From a virus (Duplodnaviria > Heunggongvirae > Uroviricota > Caudoviricetes): a stretch of 33,017 nucleotides of DNA. The stretch lies in the IMG/VR virus record IMGVR_UViG_3300029886_000150. One strand, written 5' to 3'. The notes below the pieces were generated by a model. That model saw nothing but the letters and a program-made list of their open reading frames with translations. It was not told where the DNA came from and ran no database searches. How positions within the stretch are numbered: position 1 is the stretch's first letter; each line of letters starts with the position of its first letter. The translations under genes and the position numbers were made by a program. Below, piece by piece: positions 1-9,947 of the stretch.

Positions 1-996
1 TTATGGACGCATTATGGACATTCCTGACACCGGGTTAAGAGTCACTGCATCTTGTAAGAAATCCGGTGCAAAGTGTGCGTAGGTCATAGTTTGCTGAATG
101 TTAGAATGACCCAGGATGCGCTGCAATGTGATTATGTTACCTCCATTCATTATAAAATGTGTGGCAAATGTATGCCTCAAAACATGCACTGCCTGTCCGT
201 CAGGTAAATCGGGTTTTACTTCCCTGAGAGCGTTGCGCACTTTGTAGTAACTGGCATTAAAAAGCCTGCCTGAATTTTTGGTCTTGATCCGTTTAATCAG
301 GTCCTGCGAAACGGGAATTGTCCTGCGCTTTCCGTTTTTAGTTTTCATAAACGTAACCATCTGGTTAATGATGTGTTCAGCTTTTAAATTAGACACTTCA
401 CTCCAGCGTCCACCAGTAGAAAGGCAGACCAGAGTCGCATTTAATTCATCACCATCGAGCATGGATAACAGCCGTGTAATCTCTTCACTGGACAAAAAAG
501 CCATTTCTGTAACAGCTTCACGTAATCGCTTAACCTCACGGAACGGGTTGTGAGAATGGTATTCACCGGCATCAATTAACTTGGTGAACATCCCGCTCAT
601 TATTGCCAGATGCCGATTTACGCTGGCTGGTTTTAGACCATCGTTCATCATTACAACGCGATAATCAGTTATCGTTTTCTTTGTTAGCTGGTCAGCTCTG
701 GACACTCCCATTTCTGCAAATTTGGCGATTATTGTCGTCAAACGCCCCCGTTCAATATCTCCACGCTCATGTGATTTTCCGTGATATATCCACCATCTGC
801 CTAACAACTCTGTAAGAGTTCGGCGGTCGGCTGGCTTCTCCAGCCACTCTTTGTTGTGGTAGTTAACCAGTACATGACGTTCGAATGCTTGAGCTTCACC
901 TTTAGTTTTAAATTTCCGCCTGATACGTTTTCCATCTGCACCCTGCGGTCTGACGTCCACTTCATAACGACCATCATCGAGCTTTTTAATAGACAT
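1..996 (-). CDS. int: Tyrosine site-specific integrase (P2 Int-like), 331 aa
   Basis: ORF track 1..996 minus; start codon ATG at 994-996. Conserved tyrosine-recombinase C-terminal motifs (HVLRHTFATHF, LGHSNIQQTMTYAH). Position next to the C repressor at the prophage end. Confidence 0.9.
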   Translation of the reverse strand: MSIKKLDDGRYEVDVRPQGADGKRIRRKFKTKGEAQAFERHVLVNYHNKEWLEKPADRRTLTELLGRWWIYHGKSHERGDIERGRLTTIIAKFAEMGVSRADQLTKKTITDYRVVMMNDGLKPASVNRHLAIMSGMFTKLIDAGEYHSHNPFREVKRLREAVTEMAFLSSEEITRLLSMLDGDELNATLVCLSTGGRWSEVSNLKAEHIINQMVTFMKTKNGKRRTIPVSQDLIKRIKTKNSGRLFNASYYKVRNALREVKPDLPDGQAVHVLRHTFATHFIMNGGNIITLQRILGHSNIQQTMTYAHFAPDFLQDAVTLNPVSGMSIMRP

Positions 997-3587: not shown

Positions 3588-3859
3588 GTATTCGTATCGA
3601 AATTGGCGAACGTTATGTCGTTACCAGTGACAGCTTTCAGTTTATTCTCCACGAGAAAAAGAGAGCGGAAAGCGGTAAAAACGCCGGTCAGGAATGGCTG
3701 GCGGTGGTTGGTTATTACCCGAAATTAAGCCAGCTCGTTTCCGGCCTGATGCATCACGATATTCTGACCGGAAGCGCAAAGTCTTTTGCTGATTTAAACG
3801 CGCAGGTTGAGCAACTCAGCAAGCGTTGTTCAGAGGCTTTTGGCTCATATGGCCGTTAA
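3584..3859 (+). CDS. Hypothetical early protein, 91 aa
   Basis: ATG 3584 after GGAGAACGGC; ends at 3859, overlapping the A start. Confidence 0.6.
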   Translation: MSIRIEIGERYVVTSDSFQFILHEKKRAESGKNAGQEWLAVVGYYPKLSQLVSGLMHHDILTGSAKSFADLNAQVEQLSKRCSEAFGSYGR

Positions 3860-6134
3860 AGCCTCCGGGCGTTTTGTCCCTCCGTCAGCATTTGCCGCAG
3901 GCACCGGTAAGGCGTTTACCGGTGCTTATGCATGGAACGCGCCACGCGAGGCTGTCGGGCGCGAAAGACCCCTTACACGTGACGAGATGCGTCAGGTGCA
4001 AGGTGTTTTATCCACGATTAACCGCCTGCCTTACTTTTTGCGCTCGCTGTTTACTTCACGCTATGACTACATCCGGCGCAATAAAAGCCCGGTGCACGGG
4101 TTTTATTTCCTCACATCCACTTTTCAGCGTCGTTTATGGCCGCGCATTGAGCGCGTGAATCAGCGCCATGAAATGAACACCGACGCGTCGTTACTGTTTC
4201 TGGCAGAGCGTGACCACTATGCGCGCCTGCCGGGGATGAATGACAAGGAGCTGAAAAAGTTTGCCGCCCGTATCTCATCGCAGCTTTTCATGATGTATGA
4301 GGAACTCTGCGATGCATGGGTTGATGCACATGGCGAAAAAGAATCGCTGTTTACGGATGAGGCGCAGACTCACCTGTATGGTCATGTTGCTGGCGCTGCA
4401 CGTGCTTTCAATATTTCCCCGCTCTACTGGAAAAAATACCGTAAAGGACAGATAACCACGAGGCAGGCATATTCTGCCATTGCCCGTCTGTTTAACGATG
4501 AGTGGTGGACTCATCAGCTTAAAGGCCAGCGTATGCGCTGGCATGAGGCGTTACTGATTGCTGTCGGGGAGGTCAATAAAGACCGTTCTCCTTATGCCAG
4601 TAAACATGCCATTCGTGATGTGCGTGCACGCCGCCAGGCAAATCTGGAATTTCTTAAATCGTGTGACCTTGAAAACAGGGAAACCGGCGAGCGCATCGAC
4701 CTTATCAGTAAGGTGATGGGCAGTATTTCTAATCCTGAAATTCGCCGGATGGAGCTGATGAACACCATCGCCGGAATTGAGCGTTATGCCGCCGCAGAGG
4801 GTGATGTGGGGATGTTTATCACGCTGACCGCGCCGTCAAAGTATCACCCGACACGTCAGGTCGGAAAAGGCGAAAGTAAAACCGTCCAGCTAAATCACGG
4901 CTGGAATGATGAGGCATTTAATCCAAAGGATGCGCAGCGTTATCTCTGCCATATCTGGAGCCTGATGCGCACGGCATTCAAGGATAATGATTTACAGGTC
5001 TACGGTTTGCGTGTCGTCGAGCCACACCACGACGGAACGCCGCACTGGCATATGATGCTTTTTTGTAATCCACGCCAGCGTAACCAGATTATTGAAATCA
5101 TGCGTCGCTATGCGCTCAAAGAGGATGGCGACGAAAGAGGAGCCGCGCGAAACCGTTTTCAGGCAAAACACCTTAACCGGGGCGGTGCTGCGGGATATAT
5201 CGCGAAATACATCTCAAAAAACATCGACGGCTATGCACTGGATGGTCAGCTCGATAATGATACCGGTAGGCCGCTGAAAGACACAGCTGCGGCTGTTACC
5301 GCATGGGCGTCAACGTGGCGCATTCCGCAATTTAAAACGGTTGGTCTGCCGACAATGGGGGCTTACCGTGAATTACGCAAATTGCCTCGCGGCGTCAGCA
5401 TTGCTGATGAGTTTGACGAGCGCGTCGAGGCTGCACGCGCCGCCGCAGACAGTGGTGATTTTGCGTTGTATATCAGCGCGCAGGGTGGGGCAAATGTTCC
5501 GCGCGATTGTCAGACTGTCAGAGTCGCCCGTAGCCCGTCGGATGACGTTAACGAGTACGAGGAAGAAGTCGAGAGAGTGGTCGGCATTTACGCACCGCAT
5601 CTCGGCGCGCGTCATATTCATATCACCAGAACCACGGATTGGCGCATTGTGCCGAAAGTTCCGGTCGTTGAGCCTTTGACTTTAAAAAGCGGCATCGCCG
5701 CGCCTCGGAGTCCTGTCAATAACTGTGGAAAGCTCACTGGTGGTGATACTTCGTTACCGGCTCCCACGCCTTCTGAGCACGCCGCAGCAGTGCTTAATCT
5801 GGTTGATGACGGTGTTATCGAATGGAATGAACCGGAGGTCGTGAGGACGCTCAGGGGTGCATTAAAACACGGCCTGAAAACACCAAACCGTCAGCAAAGA
5901 AACGGAAGCCCGTTAAAATCACATGAAATAGCACCGTCGGCCAGGCTGACCCGGTCGGAACGATTGCAAATCACCCGTATCCGCGTTGACCTTGCTCAGA
6001 ATGGAATCTTGCCCCAGCGATGGGAGCTTGAGGCGCTGGCGCGTGGGGCAACCATAAATTATGACGGGAAACAATTCACGTATCTGGCTGCTGATGAGTG
6101 GCCGGGATTCTCAACAGTAATGGAGTGGACATGA
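3849..6134 (+). CDS. A: Rolling-circle replication initiator / nicking endonuclease A (P2 gpA-like), 761 aa
   Basis: ORF track 3807..6134 begins at TTG; first ATG at 3849 gives 761 aa, the P2 gpA length. Sequence resembles the gpA family as recalled; position after B and the early ORFs. Confidence 0.9.
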   Translation: MAVKASGRFVPPSAFAAGTGKAFTGAYAWNAPREAVGRERPLTRDEMRQVQGVLSTINRLPYFLRSLFTSRYDYIRRNKSPVHGFYFLTSTFQRRLWPRIERVNQRHEMNTDASLLFLAERDHYARLPGMNDKELKKFAARISSQLFMMYEELCDAWVDAHGEKESLFTDEAQTHLYGHVAGAARAFNISPLYWKKYRKGQITTRQAYSAIARLFNDEWWTHQLKGQRMRWHEALLIAVGEVNKDRSPYASKHAIRDVRARRQANLEFLKSCDLENRETGERIDLISKVMGSISNPEIRRMELMNTIAGIERYAAAEGDVGMFITLTAPSKYHPTRQVGKGESKTVQLNHGWNDEAFNPKDAQRYLCHIWSLMRTAFKDNDLQVYGLRVVEPHHDGTPHWHMMLFCNPRQRNQIIEIMRRYALKEDGDERGAARNRFQAKHLNRGGAAGYIAKYISKNIDGYALDGQLDNDTGRPLKDTAAAVTAWASTWRIPQFKTVGLPTMGAYRELRKLPRGVSIADEFDERVEAARAAADSGDFALYISAQGGANVPRDCQTVRVARSPSDDVNEYEEEVERVVGIYAPHLGARHIHITRTTDWRIVPKVPVVEPLTLKSGIAAPRSPVNNCGKLTGGDTSLPAPTPSEHAAAVLNLVDDGVIEWNEPEVVRTLRGALKHGLKTPNRQQRNGSPLKSHEIAPSARLTRSERLQITRIRVDLAQNGILPQRWELEALARGATINYDGKQFTYLAADEWPGFSTVMEWT

Positions 6135-6586
6135 TGGCAAAAATTCACGAGGTAAAGCTGCACGCAAAATATTTTGACCTTGTGCTGGAAGGAAAGAAAC
6201 GCGCAGAGTTTCGGAAAAATGACCGTAATTATGAGCGCGGGGACACGTTGATTTTGCATGAATGGGTGCAGGGTGTGTATACGGGGCGAAAGGTTGAAGC
6301 CCGGATAACAGATGTTACTGACCTGTCAGACTGGCTGGCAGATTATGTCTTGCTAAGTATTGAGCTGCTTAATACAGGCGCATATGAGATTGTGAACTGG
6401 AAAGAACTTAGTGAGCGTGGTCTGGTATTCAGAATTAATCATGAAATTATGCATCAGCTCGGCCTTGCTGTTATGTATGAACCAGAGACGGGGATGTCTG
6501 GCGGGGCAATGGTTGCCACGGATGGAGCATGGAACTATTCAGATGAACAGATGGAGCGTGCAAAGCAAAACGGGTGGCTTGGATAA
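6131..6586 (+). CDS. ASCH-like (DUF3850-like) domain protein, about 151 aa, first cargo gene
   Basis: ATG at 6131 overlapping the A stop (ATGA). N-terminal segment HEVKLHAKYFDLVLEGKKRAEFRKNDRNYERGDTLILHEW matches the ASCH/DUF3850 pattern as I recall it. Confidence 0.6.
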   Translation: MMAKIHEVKLHAKYFDLVLEGKKRAEFRKNDRNYERGDTLILHEWVQGVYTGRKVEARITDVTDLSDWLADYVLLSIELLNTGAYEIVNWKELSERGLVFRINHEIMHQLGLAVMYEPETGMSGGAMVATDGAWNYSDEQMERAKQNGWLG

Positions 6587-6792
6587 TGCACAGAATACCA
6601 GGCGAGATACCGCGACATAACACTAAAAATATCAAGCTGATGGCTATTGTTCACCGTCTACAGCAGATTATGGTCAACGAAAATCTGACGCCTGACGAGC
6701 TGGTCGGGTGTGCCGAAATAGTCCGGGATAATTACGGGCGGCTTAACTATATCGGTCAGTCCAGCGTTGCGCCACCACTACGCAGACGATAG
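6586..6792 (+). CDS. Small hypothetical protein, 68 aa
   Basis: ATG 6586 overlaps the upstream stop (TAATG); ORF ends at TAG 6790-6792, followed immediately by the hairpin at 6797-6835. No recognisable motif. Confidence 0.4.
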   Translation: MHRIPGEIPRHNTKNIKLMAIVHRLQQIMVNENLTPDELVGCAEIVRDNYGRLNYIGQSSVAPPLRRR

Positions 6793-6796
6793 AGAA

Positions 6797-6835
6797 CGCC
6801 GCCAGCCGTGAAACTTGTTTTCAGGGCTGGCGGCG
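6797..6835 (+). terminator. Stem-loop element, copy 1 (11-bp GC-rich stem, 17-nt loop containing GAAACTTGTTTTCAG), followed by GTTGAACAAC
   Basis: CGCCGCCAGCC (6797-6807) pairs with GGCTGGCGGCG (6825-6835); sits 5 nt after the stop of the 68-aa ORF. No U-tract follows, so it is not a canonical intrinsic terminator. Confidence 0.5.
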
Positions 6836-7016
6836 TTGAACAACGAGCGTAGCGAGGCGTTAGTTGACAGTCATATTTTTACTGCGTAGGTGCTGGTTTT
6901 TGACGGTTGAAAGGAGTTAGGTTGGAGAGCTAACAACTTACAAATATTCAAAAGTGAGCATCCTGTTGCTAACATGAGGTCGATTTTTTTATGTGGATGA
7001 TGCAAAAAGGATAGCT

Positions 7017-7748
7017 ATGGATACTGTAATCGCTTTTCTATCACTCGCTTTTTTCGTTGCTTTTTTCATCGGGTTAATCAAGCCATCACTGGTGCGGATG
7101 CCAAACCGTAAACGTGCAAGTGCGGTTTATCTCGGAGGTGGTTTTGCATTGAGCATAATTGGTTCAATACTCTACCCAACAGAAAAAAGCCAGCCAGTTG
7201 CTAAAACTGAAACATCAACCGTAGCAGAACACCAAACCCAAAAAACATTCGAATATAGTGAAAAAACACTCAAGGAATATCGGAACGAGCCAAAGAAGAC
7301 TCGACACGATATTGTGAATAGTTACATTGACTTTAAGAAAGTGCCTGTCACCGCATCAGATGTATTTTACGCCTGCATGAGTGAGTATACATTTACCAAA
7401 GATGATGAGTTGAAACTCGGTGATGTTCTTGGGTGGTGCTTTAATGATTATGAAAATGACCCGAATTCATTAAACAATAAAATCAATCTTGATACATTTC
7501 AGAGTAATTTTAGTGGTTGGGATGGTTCTTATCGGCCATTGGAAAAACTAATTAAAGATAATATGAACGATGATTCATCTTATAAACATGTGTCAACGCT
7601 ATATCATTTGGTTTTGAATAAAGACCCGCATGCCATTGTGAAAACCACGTTTCGCGGAACTAATGCTTATGGCGGGGTGGTTAAACAGACGATCTCGGCG
7701 CGTGTTGATGTGCGAACGGGTGAAGTTGTTTCGATACTCGATAACTAA
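7017..7748 (+). CDS. Cargo protein with two predicted N-terminal transmembrane helices and a C-terminal soluble domain of about 180 aa; function unknown
   Basis: ORF track 6993..7748 starts at GTG; ATG 7017 has a better ribosome-binding site (AGGA, 5-nt spacer). Hydrophobic segments VIAFLSLAFFVAFFIGLI and AVYLGGGFALSIIGSILY. AT-rich coding sequence. Confidence 0.65.
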   Translation: MDTVIAFLSLAFFVAFFIGLIKPSLVRMPNRKRASAVYLGGGFALSIIGSILYPTEKSQPVAKTETSTVAEHQTQKTFEYSEKTLKEYRNEPKKTRHDIVNSYIDFKKVPVTASDVFYACMSEYTFTKDDELKLGDVLGWCFNDYENDPNSLNNKINLDTFQSNFSGWDGSYRPLEKLIKDNMNDDSSYKHVSTLYHLVLNKDPHAIVKTTFRGTNAYGGVVKQTISARVDVRTGEVVSILDN

Positions 7749-7765
7749 ACCAGTAAAGTGATAAA

Positions 7766-7802
7766 CGCCGTCAGTACTGAAACTTGTTTCAGGCTGACGG
7801 TG
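7766..7802 (+). terminator. Stem-loop element, copy 2 (CGCCGTCAG / CTGACGGTG stem around CTGAAACTTGTTTCAG), followed by GTTGAACGAC
   Basis: Same loop core and same downstream GTTGAAC motif as copy 1, with different but still complementary stem bases; sits 18 nt after the 2-TM gene stop. Confidence 0.5.
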
Positions 7803-7848
7803 TTGAACGACATTAACAGTGATAAATTAGTAGCGGAACACAATAATC

Positions 7849-7877
7849 TTGTTTTGTGCATGAAAAGCATGTATTGT
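7849..7877 (+). promoter_or_regulatory. Candidate sigma70-type promoter for the 224-aa cargo gene (TTGTTT, 17-nt spacer, TATTGT)
   Basis: Hexamers with a 17-nt spacer about 30 nt upstream of ATG 7908, in an AT-rich intergenic region after the copy-2 hairpin. Confidence 0.3.
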
Positions 7878-7907
7878 GCGTAAAACGTCTATTTTACGAG
7901 GTGCGTT

Positions 7908-8582
7908 ATGGTTTTTCGTGCAGATGAAAGTGCTCAACGTGGATTTGAGAAAGCATGCAGTGTATTGATTACAAATGATATCGTTGGTAATGAGAGAGCT
8001 TTTGCTCGTCAAAAACTGGAACAAATTATTGATGAATGTGGTTCCGTAGTTGATGGGTATCCAGGTTGGCATCCTTTTTTGATGGAAACTGATTCAGATA
8101 GTTTTTCTCCAATGATTCCTGATAATTGCTCAAGTTATCGACTGCTTGATCATTCTGTATATCTGGTAAATGGAATCATAACGTGTCCTTATAGTCATGC
8201 AGTTGGCCAGTTAGTTAGCAATATTCAAGCGATACGAAACAAGCATGATTTAGCTGATATAACGATAGAAGAAATTAAAGGCGTGACTTTCTACAATTCT
8301 CATACAACACCTATGTTAATTAGATGCCGTTGGAAAACTGGACTGGAAGAAGATGGCACAATCCCCCTGCGTACAGCTTTGGGGTTGATGCTTGAAAGAG
8401 AATTGCCGGGATGGAGATGGGGACGATTTAATCAGAGTTGGGAAAGCATGAGAGGGGATATTTTGGGTTATCCTCATGGCGCTAGGTCTTCTTTATTTGT
8501 CAATCAGCAAACAGGTCAGCAGCTAAAAAACGTATGGAATCAACTTATAAAAGCTGGTTTATGGGGGGATGAATATAAATAA
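7908..8582 (+). CDS. Soluble cargo protein, 224 aa, function unknown
   Basis: ATG 7908 after GAGG; AT-rich; last gene before the cos region. No motif I can assign to a known family. Confidence 0.65.
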   Translation: MVFRADESAQRGFEKACSVLITNDIVGNERAFARQKLEQIIDECGSVVDGYPGWHPFLMETDSDSFSPMIPDNCSSYRLLDHSVYLVNGIITCPYSHAVGQLVSNIQAIRNKHDLADITIEEIKGVTFYNSHTTPMLIRCRWKTGLEEDGTIPLRTALGLMLERELPGWRWGRFNQSWESMRGDILGYPHGARSSLFVNQQTGQQLKNVWNQLIKAGLWGDEYK

Positions 8583-8723
8583 TCAGAATTATATTCCTGT
8601 GCATGTCTGTGACGCATTAATTTGCATGCGTTTTCCTCTACTGTTGCTTGTGAGAGCCGTCAGTGCCGGCGCGCTCTTGGAGTGTTCATGCAACTGCATT
8701 AAAACCGCCCCATGAAGCGGGCG

Positions 8724-8742
8724 GGCGAGGCGGGGAAAGCAC
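8724..8742. other. Cohesive-end (cos) site, 19-nt P2-type sequence GGCGAGGCGGGGAAAGCAC
   Basis: Exact match to the P2 19-nt cohesive end as I recall it, about 170 bp beyond the 3' end of Q, where cos lies in P2. Preceded by a GC hairpin CCGCCC..GGGCGG. Confidence 0.6.
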
Positions 8743-8885
8743 TGCGCGCTGGCGGTGGTGCTGATTTTATTTTTTCAGCGTCTGAGCGCGTCGTGATGGC
8801 GTTTAGATTGTTCGCCGGGGCCGTTGGTGTGTCTGCGGGGTGTTTTGTGCGGTGGTGAGCGTATGAGGGCGTGATGACGGGGTGT

Positions 8886-8909
8886 AAAAAAGCCGCCCGC
8901 AGGCGGCGA
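8886..8909 (-). terminator. Rho-independent terminator downstream of Q (minus strand)
   Basis: GCCGCC / GGCGGC stem (8893-8898, 8904-8909) followed on the minus strand by a 6-U tract (plus-strand A-run 8886-8891), 3 nt past the Q stop. Confidence 0.7.
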
Positions 8910-8912
8910 TGT

Positions 8913-9947
8913 TCAGCCGTTGTCAGTGTCCAGTGAGTAGTTTTTAAAGCGGATGACTTCCTGGCCGAGCCAGCCGTTTATCTCGCGGATCCTGTCCTGT
9001 AGCGGGATAAGCTCATTGCGGACAAAGACCTTTGCCACTTTCTCAATATCGCCCAGCGACCCGACGTTCTCCGGCTTGCCGCCCATCAACTGAAAGGGGA
9101 TGCGGTGCGCGTCCAGCAGGTCAGCGGCGCTGGCTTTTTTGATATTAAAAAAATCGTCCTTCGTTGCCACTTCACTGAGCGGGATAATTTTAATGCCGTC
9201 GGCTTTCCCCTGTGGGGCATAGAGAAACAGGTTTTTAAAGTTGTTGCGGCCTTTCGACTTCACCATGTTTTCGCGGAGCATTTCGATATCGTTGCGATCC
9301 TGCACGGCATCGGTGACGTACATGATGTATCCGGCATGTGCGCCGTTTTCGTAATACTTGCGGCGGAACAGCGTGGCTGATTCATTCAGCCAGGCAGAGT
9401 TAAGGGCGCTGAGATATTCCGGCAGGCCGTACAGCTCCTGATTGATATCCGGCTCCAGCAGGTGAAACACGGAGCCGGGCGTGAAAGGTGTTGGCTCGTT
9501 GAAGGACGGCACCCACCAGTAAATATCTTCTTCCACACCACGGCGGGTATATTTTGCCGGTGAGGTTTCCAGTCTGATGACCTTACCGGTGGTGCTGTAA
9601 CGCTTTTCCAGAAACGCATTACCGAACACCAGAAAATCCAGCACAAAGCGGCTGAAATCCTGCTGGGAAAGCCACGGATGCGGGATAAATGTCGAGGCCA
9701 GAATATTACGTTTGACGTAAATCGGGGAGCTGTGATGCACGGCAGCACGCAGGCTTTTTGCCAGACCGGTAAAGCTGACCGGTGGCTCATACCATCTGCC
9801 GTTACTGATGCACTCGACGTAATCCAGAATGTCACGGCGATCGAGTACCGGCACCGGCTCACCAAAGGTGAATGCCTCCATTTTCGGGGCGCTGGCGGTC
9901 ATTGTTTTTGCCGCTGGTCGCGGTGTTTTCCCTTTTTTCTTGCTCAT
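8913..9947 (-). CDS. Q: Portal protein (P2 gpQ-like), 344 aa
   Basis: ORF 8913..9947 minus; length equals P2 gpQ and the sequence resembles it as recalled; overlaps the P stop. Confidence 0.9.
   Translation of the reverse strand: MSKKKGKTPRPAAKTMTASAPKMEAFTFGEPVPVLDRRDILDYVECISNGRWYEPPVSFTGLAKSLRAAVHHSSPIYVKRNILASTFIPHPWLSQQDFSRFVLDFLVFGNAFLEKRYSTTGKVIRLETSPAKYTRRGVEEDIYWWVPSFNEPTPFTPGSVFHLLEPDINQELYGLPEYLSALNSAWLNESATLFRRKYYENGAHAGYIMYVTDAVQDRNDIEMLRENMVKSKGRNNFKNLFLYAPQGKADGIKIIPLSEVATKDDFFNIKKASAADLLDAHRIPFQLMGGKPENVGSLGDIEKVAKVFVRNELIPLQDRIREINGWLGQEVIRFKNYSLDTDNG

Follow-up and report, generated by a model that had tools for sequence, protein, structure and literature searches.

Imm and Sp of phage T4 and gp15 of phage HK97 are small phage-encoded inner-membrane proteins that stop the DNA entry of incoming phage. 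According to the GenBank record of coliphage 186, the LexA-repressed p95 operon contains tum and, in second place behind it, orf97, which is annotated with the words "expression from plasmid blocks 186 infection"; the primary reference for the gene, Brumby et al. 1996, is cited in PMC5322425. Phage P2 has its genes tin and old between A/orf91 and cos. The corresponding region of P2-like prophages, the gpA–gpQ (old/tin) hotspot, has been described as a reservoir of anti-phage genes in which partition systems and cytolethal distending toxin are also found (Rousset et al. 2022, PMC9122126), and rapid gene swapping takes place there (de Sousa et al. 2026, PMC13586616). Here we describe this region in IMG/VR record IMGVR_UViG_3300029886_000150, a stretch of 33,017 nucleotides (hereafter the window), which is a P2-like prophage of E. 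coli. A first-pass annotation had seen in it a cargo island of four uncharacterised genes. Our analysis instead favours, with a probability of about 0.62, a mosaic segment composed of backbone (genes 1 and 2) and two independent single-gene cassettes, one carrying the exclusion gene orf97 (gene 3) and the other a gene for a putative conflict protein of 224 amino acids, named F224 here (gene 4).

Organisation of the segment between gene A and cos

The prophage contains, in this order, an integrase gene (1–996, minus strand), immunity genes of the C/Cox type, B, the replication gene A (3807–6134), four open reading frames, cos, the portal gene Q (8913–9947, minus strand) and the terminase gene P. 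The cohesive-end sequence GGCGAGGCGGGGAAAGCAC (8724–8742, plus strand) is an exact copy of the stretch annotated as cosR in P2 (NC_001895), which puts the four reading frames between A and cos, as the first-pass annotation had stated. The segment 6000–8900 is 100% identical to a prophage adjoining pflA in the chicken isolate DG341-1 and to a few other records. The four reading frames have the coordinates given in the first-pass annotation, and RefSeq has the same four coding sequences in the DG341-1 prophage, with the start of gene 1 placed one codon later, at 6134. All four genes are located on the strand of gene A, whereas P2 transcribes tin and old from the other strand, starting at a promoter that adjoins cos.

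The composition of the segment is not uniform. Genes 3 and 4 have a GC content of 0.395 and 0.393 and a third-position GC content of 0.357 and 0.271, respectively, and the spacer between them also has 39% GC; the backbone genes A, Q and P have 0.531, 0.533 and 0.573, respectively. Gene 1 has 0.465 and gene 2 has 0.498, so that the AT-rich signal divides the segment into two parts. While all four genes lie between A and Q and adjoin cos, only genes 3 and 4 are variable and of a composition unlike that of the backbone; genes 1 and 2 are neither. The first-pass annotation was right to regard the last two genes as AT-rich cargo gained by horizontal transfer.

Gene 1 (6131–6586, plus strand) encodes a protein of 151 amino acids with an amino-terminal DUF3850/ASCH-like domain and a carboxy-terminal DUF7415 domain, in agreement with its earlier description as ASCH-like. 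The Pfam matches are to DUF3850 (E = 1.1e-17; 64.4 bits, with a cut-off of 22.9), DUF7415 (2.3e-14) and ASCH (1.3e-10), and the protein belongs to PHROG 1812 (1.8e-82). Like a P2 Orf91/DUF3850 gene, it directly follows gene A, the stop codon of which overlaps its start. Residues 1–75 are 96% identical to P2 Orf91 (109 amino acids; NC_001895 30316–30645, locus L033 3817–4146), with divergence beyond, which places the junction of the P2 old/tin insertion inside orf91. The gene in the window is the longer, Wphi-type version, with the extra DUF7415 domain, and is followed by a gene for 68 amino acids. This gene 2 (6586–6792, plus strand), the start of which overlaps the stop of gene 1, is a homologue of Wphi gp92 and forms part of the semi-conserved backbone. 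It matches PHROG 11386 (1.5e-39) and nothing in Pfam, PADLOC or NCBIfam.

At the nucleotide level, positions 6011–6865, which include both genes, are around 95–96% identical to Wphi (gp91 and gp92), L-413C, several Yersinia P2-like phages and others; for gene 2, the identity to Wphi, 9W and L-413C is around 95%. The block formed by genes 1 and 2 is present in 417 of the 5,426 complete E. coli genomes on which all prevalence counts given here are based (in 345 with at least 80% coverage). No model of PADLOC-DB v2.0.0 gave a significant match; the best, PDC-M11B, has an E-value of 0.025 over 20 residues of gene 1. We assign genes 1 and 2 to the backbone and not to the cargo; they form the conserved end of the early/replication operon of P2. 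The supposed four-gene island is thereby reduced to a cargo of approximately positions 6866–8686.

Hairpins and cassette boundaries

Two copies of a stable hairpin are present in the window, where none is expected by chance. The first (6795–6837, plus strand) begins three nucleotides past the stop codon of gene 2 and delimits the orf97 cassette on its left. Its 19-nucleotide arms are 95% complementary, with a folding energy of -35.1 kcal/mol (z = -7.1). The second (7764–7806, plus strand) is located 16 nucleotides past the stop codon of orf97, where the orf97 cassette gives way to that of F224; it is 85% identical to the first over 26 nucleotides and has a folding energy of -25.2 kcal/mol (z = -5.9). 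Neither has a run of T. An aligned copy is located downstream of orf97 in phage 186 (locus L028, around 4745–4790), and the element flanks orf97 in other P2-like prophages (L017, 2285–2310 and 3258–3283; L003, 3785–3810). Similarity to other phages ends just past the second copy and restarts at around 8687, before cos. This is the right boundary of the hotspot: in the alignment with 9W, P2 and strain 50579417, the backbone is conserved from CATGCAACTGCATTAAAACC onwards.

The repeated hairpin and the breaks in conservation suggest that cassettes are exchanged by recombination at short conserved junctions, a pattern that agrees with the rapid swapping at the hotspot reported by de Sousa et al. 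2026 (PMC13586616). The hairpin itself could be the recombination junction for such swapping, or alternatively an element of an RNA 3'-end or a partial terminator. An Rfam scan of positions 6000–9000 found no RNA gene.

Gene 3 is found in loci that lack gene 4, and gene 4 in loci that lack gene 3. Downstream of orf97, other genes are present in 9W, P24A7b, other E. coli prophages and prophages of Serratia, Salmonella and Photorhabdus, while F224 is found without orf97 in the same cos-proximal slot of 186-like prophages from Atlantibacter, Serratia, E. coli NC101 and Pantoea. In Table S5B of Rousset et al. 2022 (PMC9122126), the two genes correspond to separate single-gene entries of the same hotspot. 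In the majority of E. coli prophages, the gene behind orf97 encodes a protein of 218–232 amino acids with two transmembrane (TM) helices, of which several divergent versions exist. These are unrelated to F224; the possibility that they are divergent F224 homologues was considered and rejected, as they are membrane proteins without similarity to it. They share a conserved amino-terminal region with the two TM helices (WxMLGGWVSGxAT...) and have variable carboxy-terminal domains, without a match in Pfam or PADLOC (L002 4836–5534, L003 4950–5648, L016 3327–3983 and L017 3352–4014), and may be a diversifying family of membrane proteins that pairs with orf97.

The sharing of the individual genes, the junction in P2 Orf91, the GC content and the sequence boundaries together argue for the mosaic structure. 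The backbone part would be 6131–6792, with the orf91 homologue and the 68-amino-acid gene, and the cargo would consist of two independent single-gene cassettes in the known gpA–gpQ/cos hotspot, with the repeated hairpin immediately before the first cassette and again at the passage from the first to the second. The opposite reading, in which the four genes make up a single cargo island and perhaps a multi-gene system with an undescribed anti-phage function, draws on their common orientation and tight packing (A, gene 1 and gene 2 overlap), on their position in a known defence hotspot and on Table S5A of Rousset et al., which contains arrangements of the type "DUF3850/ASCH + hypothetical x3". 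We consider it very improbable, because genes 1 and 2 are found in hundreds of P2-like prophages with varied cargo (old/tin-type ATPases and methylases among it), genes 3 and 4 are not tied to each other and are listed singly by Rousset et al., the GC content splits the segment in two and gene 3 has an exclusion phenotype recorded for it alone.

Two reading frames for 48 amino acids (8569–8715 and 8712–8858) extend across the cos region. They are probably spurious, as the cos-flanking sequence in which they lie is conserved non-coding sequence and RefSeq does not annotate them.

Gene 3 is a homologue of 186 orf97

Gene 3 (7017–7748, plus strand) encodes a protein of 243 amino acids, which a tblastn search of phage genomes aligned over its full length with Orf97 of coliphage 186 (AAC34191.1; 78.6% identity, 100% coverage, 243 amino acids, E = 2e-120). 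It matches PHROG 3403 over 243 of 243 positions (1e-145) and is 93–94% identical to proteins of phages S164, 9W, P22H4 and P24A7b, the P22H4 record naming it Orf97. By sequence, gene 3 belongs to the coliphage 186 Orf97 family. The annotation of the 186 gene means that this family already comes with a recorded exclusion phenotype, so that gene 3 has to be taken off the list of uncharacterised genes and is no longer a candidate for an undescribed anti-phage function; F224 belongs to no described family and is the only one of the four that still fits that description.

PHROG 3403 contains 159 cluster representatives; those named by organism are all from Enterobacterales, nearly all have around 243 amino acids, and they are without a Pfam domain. 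Remoter relatives are present in Vibrio phage VHML and others. The gene was found in 84 of the E. coli genomes. Its usual place is between A and Q (Serratia, Salmonella), while in Photorhabdus it is located at the opposite end of the prophage, adjoining ogr. The homologue listed by Rousset et al. 2022 (PMC9122126) is number 12 of Table S5B, described as "2 TM", with 210 occurrences and without annotation, and with no link drawn to 186 orf97; this sequence is not in their tables of cloned and tested systems. For the proteins of genes 3 and 4, no match was obtained in Pfam, NCBIfam or PADLOC, and single-sequence and profile searches of the PDB sequences returned nothing.

The setting of the gene in the window resembles that in 186 in its cos-proximal site downstream of A and in the hairpin downstream of orf97. 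It differs in that orf97 follows tum in 186, while in the window it follows orf91/gp92, in a prophage with P2-type immunity (C/Cox). Neither tum nor a DinI-like gene is present between A and orf97, and the arrangement is not that of a LexA-repressed SOS operon. Upstream of orf97, the alignment with 186 is limited to around 70 nucleotides, the equivalent of the t95a region. A LexA box upstream of orf97 or F224 was considered and rejected, the CTG-N10-CAG core being found only in the hairpin, with a spacing that is not kept in the other copies. With tum, a LexA box and the p95 promoter all missing, the regulation of orf97, and hence the timing of its expression, probably differs from that in 186. 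In the window prophage, orf97 may be expressed by read-through from the early operon.

Predicted structure of Orf97

The two TM helices reported for gene 3 in the first-pass annotation are confirmed, with predicted positions 2–21 and 31–52. They flank a conserved basic loop, KPSLVRMPNRKRAS, in the alignment of which P23, V26, M28 and R31 are invariant. The second helix is followed by a variable, disordered linker modelled with low confidence, and then by a conserved domain of approximately 165 residues with a pLDDT of 91–96 per 10-residue block. According to the positive-inside rule, the basic loop is cytoplasmic and the carboxy-terminal domain periplasmic. The invariant residues Cys120 and Cys141 are located on adjacent predicted helices of this domain, a disposition compatible with a disulfide. 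The order of the chain would thus be an external amino-terminus, TM1, the basic cytoplasmic loop, TM2 and the periplasmic carboxy-terminal domain, held by the Cys120–Cys141 disulfide. The protein of 186 has the same architecture of two TM helices and a carboxy-terminal domain.

Among the best structural matches of the domain are Rap1a and Tai4, which are type VI immunity proteins, and the acid chaperones HdeA and HdeB, although the scores with HdeA/Tai4-like proteins are below the level that establishes homology. HdeA, HdeB, Rap1a, Tai4 and YmgD are small, all-helical periplasmic proteins without detectable sequence similarity to Orf97, which, unlike them, has a two-TM anchor and a four-stranded beta subdomain. 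The four-stranded sheet, located after the helices, weakly resembles those of cystatin and of NTF2-like inhibitors. The model suggests that Orf97 is anchored by its two TM helices and carries in the periplasm a domain with a disulfide that is similar to HdeA/Tai4.

Taken together, the predicted topology and the 186 phenotype point to superinfection exclusion at the level of the envelope. Orf97 would bind something periplasmic or in the inner membrane during phage entry, and would stop the DNA entry or the tail-tip action of incoming P2/186-like phages without cutting DNA or killing the cell. In this presumed mechanism it may be likened to T4 Imm and Sp and HK97 gp15, an analogy of action that implies no common family. 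The structural matches and the predicted periplasmic location with a conserved disulfide would also suit a lysogenic-conversion protein of the envelope that does not exclude phage in nature, either an orphan immunity protein against toxins acting in the periplasm, such as type VI amidase effectors or bacteriocins, or an HdeA-like stress chaperone of the periplasm. We regard this as quite unlikely, since the sole experimental record for the family is the block of 186 infection, while the loci examined are all P2/186-like or related myovirus prophages, with no type VI secretion genes seen nearby.

The F224 family

Gene 4 (7908–8582, plus strand) encodes F224, a protein of 224 amino acids. It has no hydrophobic segment, and its maximum Kyte-Doolittle hydropathy over 19 residues is 0.91, consistent with the soluble protein that had been proposed. 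F224 has no match in Pfam, PHROG, PADLOC or NCBIfam, and a Pfam scan of all 44 aligned relatives found no domain. Similarity to Old or Tin is lacking, as the first-pass annotation had also concluded: the four proteins contain no Pfam ATPase or TOPRIM domain and have no significant PADLOC match, and BLASTP gave E-values above 1 (12 for F224 with P2 Old, 14 for F224 with P2 Tin and 1.7 for Orf97 with Tin). Resemblance to the P2 genes is confined to the slot between A/orf91 and cos and, in the case of Tin, to being a single protein of around 220–250 amino acids without a recognisable domain, like F224 and Orf97. A full-text search of a literature library with the F224 motif and accession numbers retrieved no paper, and nothing was found in the supplements of Vassallo et al. 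2022.

The family comprises 133 homologues at 36–75% identity; among 1.84 billion representatives, it accounts for 288 clusters when these are formed at 50% identity. Nearly all members have 215–235 amino acids, apart from a subfamily of 310–325 amino acids with a carboxy-terminal extension; this extension was examined as a possible informative domain fusion and set aside, as it has no Pfam match. Three residues, His55 (in YPxWHP), His82 (in LDH) and Cys93 (in TCPY), are invariant in 44 of 44 sequences. A further invariant block of the family, GxPHGxRSSLF, forms part of the motif GxPHGARSSLFVNQ in the window protein. The structure of F224 is predicted with a pLDDT of 92, and neither the PDB nor BFVD contains a match to the predicted fold at the level of homology. 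His82 and Cys93 are on either side of a predicted beta-hairpin, and we suspect that they form a metal or catalytic centre with His55. F224 would then be a stand-alone cytoplasmic protein with a fold not seen before, from a family borne on mobile elements, with His55, His82 and Cys93 as its centre.

In the E. coli genomes, the gene of the type present in the window was found in nine records. In the four 186-like prophages mentioned above, F224 has different neighbours. It adjoins DUF8168 in Atlantibacter and an Eco57I-type methyltransferase and HicB in Serratia; in E. coli NC101 and 23 other genomes its neighbour is a KAP NTPase matching PADLOC model PDC-S49 (NC101 locus L018, 6473–9560), and in Pantoea it overlaps a PIN_12 gene at the stop and start codons (L022, 7001–8814). 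The NC101-type homologue, 52% identical to the window protein, corresponds to number 47 of Table S5B of Rousset et al. 2022 (PMC9122126), which has no domain, 82 occurrences and no annotation; this homologue is absent from their tables of cloned and tested systems. Their Table S5A lists arrangements of KAP_NTPase and PIN_12, and F224, PIN_12 and the KAP NTPase may be shuffled at the hotspot in a mix-and-match manner. A system made up of F224 with the KAP NTPase or PIN_12 was considered and rejected, given that the KAP NTPase alone matches PDC-S49 and no partner recurs in 21 loci.

In these 21 loci, taken from species-representative genomes, no Pfam family is present in more than three of the 138 neighbouring genes, which suggests that F224 works without a fixed partner. 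A few neighbours match PsyrTA, a type III methyltransferase, PDC-S49 or DpdF-like helicases. The gene also adjoins a pyocin in Marinobacter; in a cyanobacterium it is surrounded by Uma2 and ParDE modules, and in Acinetobacter it is part of an integrative island.

Relatives with 28–46% identity are present on 200 plasmids of PLSDB, of which 158 are conjugative. On IncFII plasmids, five small genes without annotation form a cluster downstream of repA with F224 at its head, for which reason a location in the plasmid leading region was rejected for this group; on an IncA plasmid it is located between genes for a PAAR protein and HipA. A longer subfamily has 282–312 amino acids on three plasmids (L031 8998–9852, L058 14004–14852 and L032 7911–8849). 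It is carried by many conjugative plasmids of the IncFII/IncFIB and IncA types in Klebsiella, Enterobacter, Citrobacter and E. coli, among them plasmids with the carbapenemases KPC and VIM.

A homologue with 41–42% identity to the window protein is encoded on a 398-kb contig of JGI metagenome 3300036962 (L023, 7001–7684). The gene adjoins a MutS gene and is 2.6 kb from a gene with a Pfam match to the NCLDV major capsid protein, in a stretch with 57% GC.

Discussion

The reading favoured here, of a backbone with two single-gene cassettes, assigns F224 to conflict between mobile element and host, where it would act alone, as defence or counter-defence. Were it a counter-defence or establishment factor, neutralising the immunity of the host for the benefit of the mobile element instead of protecting the lysogen, its presence on P2/186-like prophages, plasmids (mostly conjugative) and integrative islands would be understandable, as all of these face host immunity. 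The same can be said of its small size, lack of a partner and mildly acidic character (the median pI of the family is 5.7), and of the homologue near a giant-virus-type capsid gene. This role is nevertheless unlikely, since on IncFII plasmids the gene is not in the leading region, the family is absent from the deposited phage genomes, its neighbours at the P2 hotspot are mostly genes of the defence type and anti-defence systems were found in only 28 P2 elements of the dataset of de Sousa et al. 2026 (PMC13586616).

Alternatively, F224 may be a passenger with no part in phage conflict, for instance a small enzyme of metabolism or of the stress response, or an addiction factor resembling a toxin or antitoxin, its presence at the hotspot reflecting only an opportunity for recombination. 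The hotspot does hold partition systems and cytolethal distending toxin (PMC9122126), several F224 loci are among toxin–antitoxin modules, others are in ordinary chromosomal neighbourhoods and no defence domain was detected. Set against this are the repeated, independent captures of the gene in this one cos-proximal slot, which took place in five or more lineages including that of the window, the lack of an adjoining small partner as is typical of a toxin–antitoxin pair, and the strong conservation across phyla (38–75% identity) combined with a patchy presence in host genomes. A passenger role is thus possible, if somewhat doubtful. Just as tentative is the most far-reaching proposal, namely that F224 founds a new class of single-protein effectors with an unseen fold and a His-His-Cys metal or catalytic centre, exchanged among the hotspots of P2/186-like prophages, conjugative plasmids and islands across several phyla, possibly also a giant virus, which on its own aborts or blocks phage or else disarms a widespread immune pathway. 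F224 is best described as a candidate, genuine but unproven, for a role in defence or counter-defence.

Several observations weigh against the favoured reading, for one or the other of the two cassettes. With respect to orf97, the 186 phenotype was obtained by expression from a plasmid, and overexpression of a membrane protein could account for the block. The topology was derived by applying the positive-inside rule by hand. Unlike in the LexA-controlled tum operon of 186, there is no LexA-box-like site at 6790–7016 and no tum, and the stretch between 6792 and 7017 contains no promoter-like site. As for F224, its association with defence genes is only mild, some loci (in Burkholderiales) being ordinary-looking chromosome, and it was found in none of the 50,697 deposited phage genomes.

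Taken as a whole, the locus brings little that is new, because the hotspot and its role in defence were already established. The intuition based on position was right for gene 3, though its phenotype had been described before. What is new is the link between the two records: the anonymous entry number 12 of Rousset et al., with its 210 occurrences, is a homologue of orf97 of phage 186, with its old and nearly forgotten exclusion phenotype. The phenotype also gains a structural hypothesis, that of a membrane-anchored periplasmic binder which would exclude phage at the envelope. F224 is a compact, confidently modelled and unannotated family, encoded in the window by a gene of 675 base pairs, that occupies the cos-proximal slot and is carried by many conjugative plasmids. 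If it is a true immune or anti-immune effector, the catalogue of defence would gain a previously unknown fold and probably a novel mechanism.

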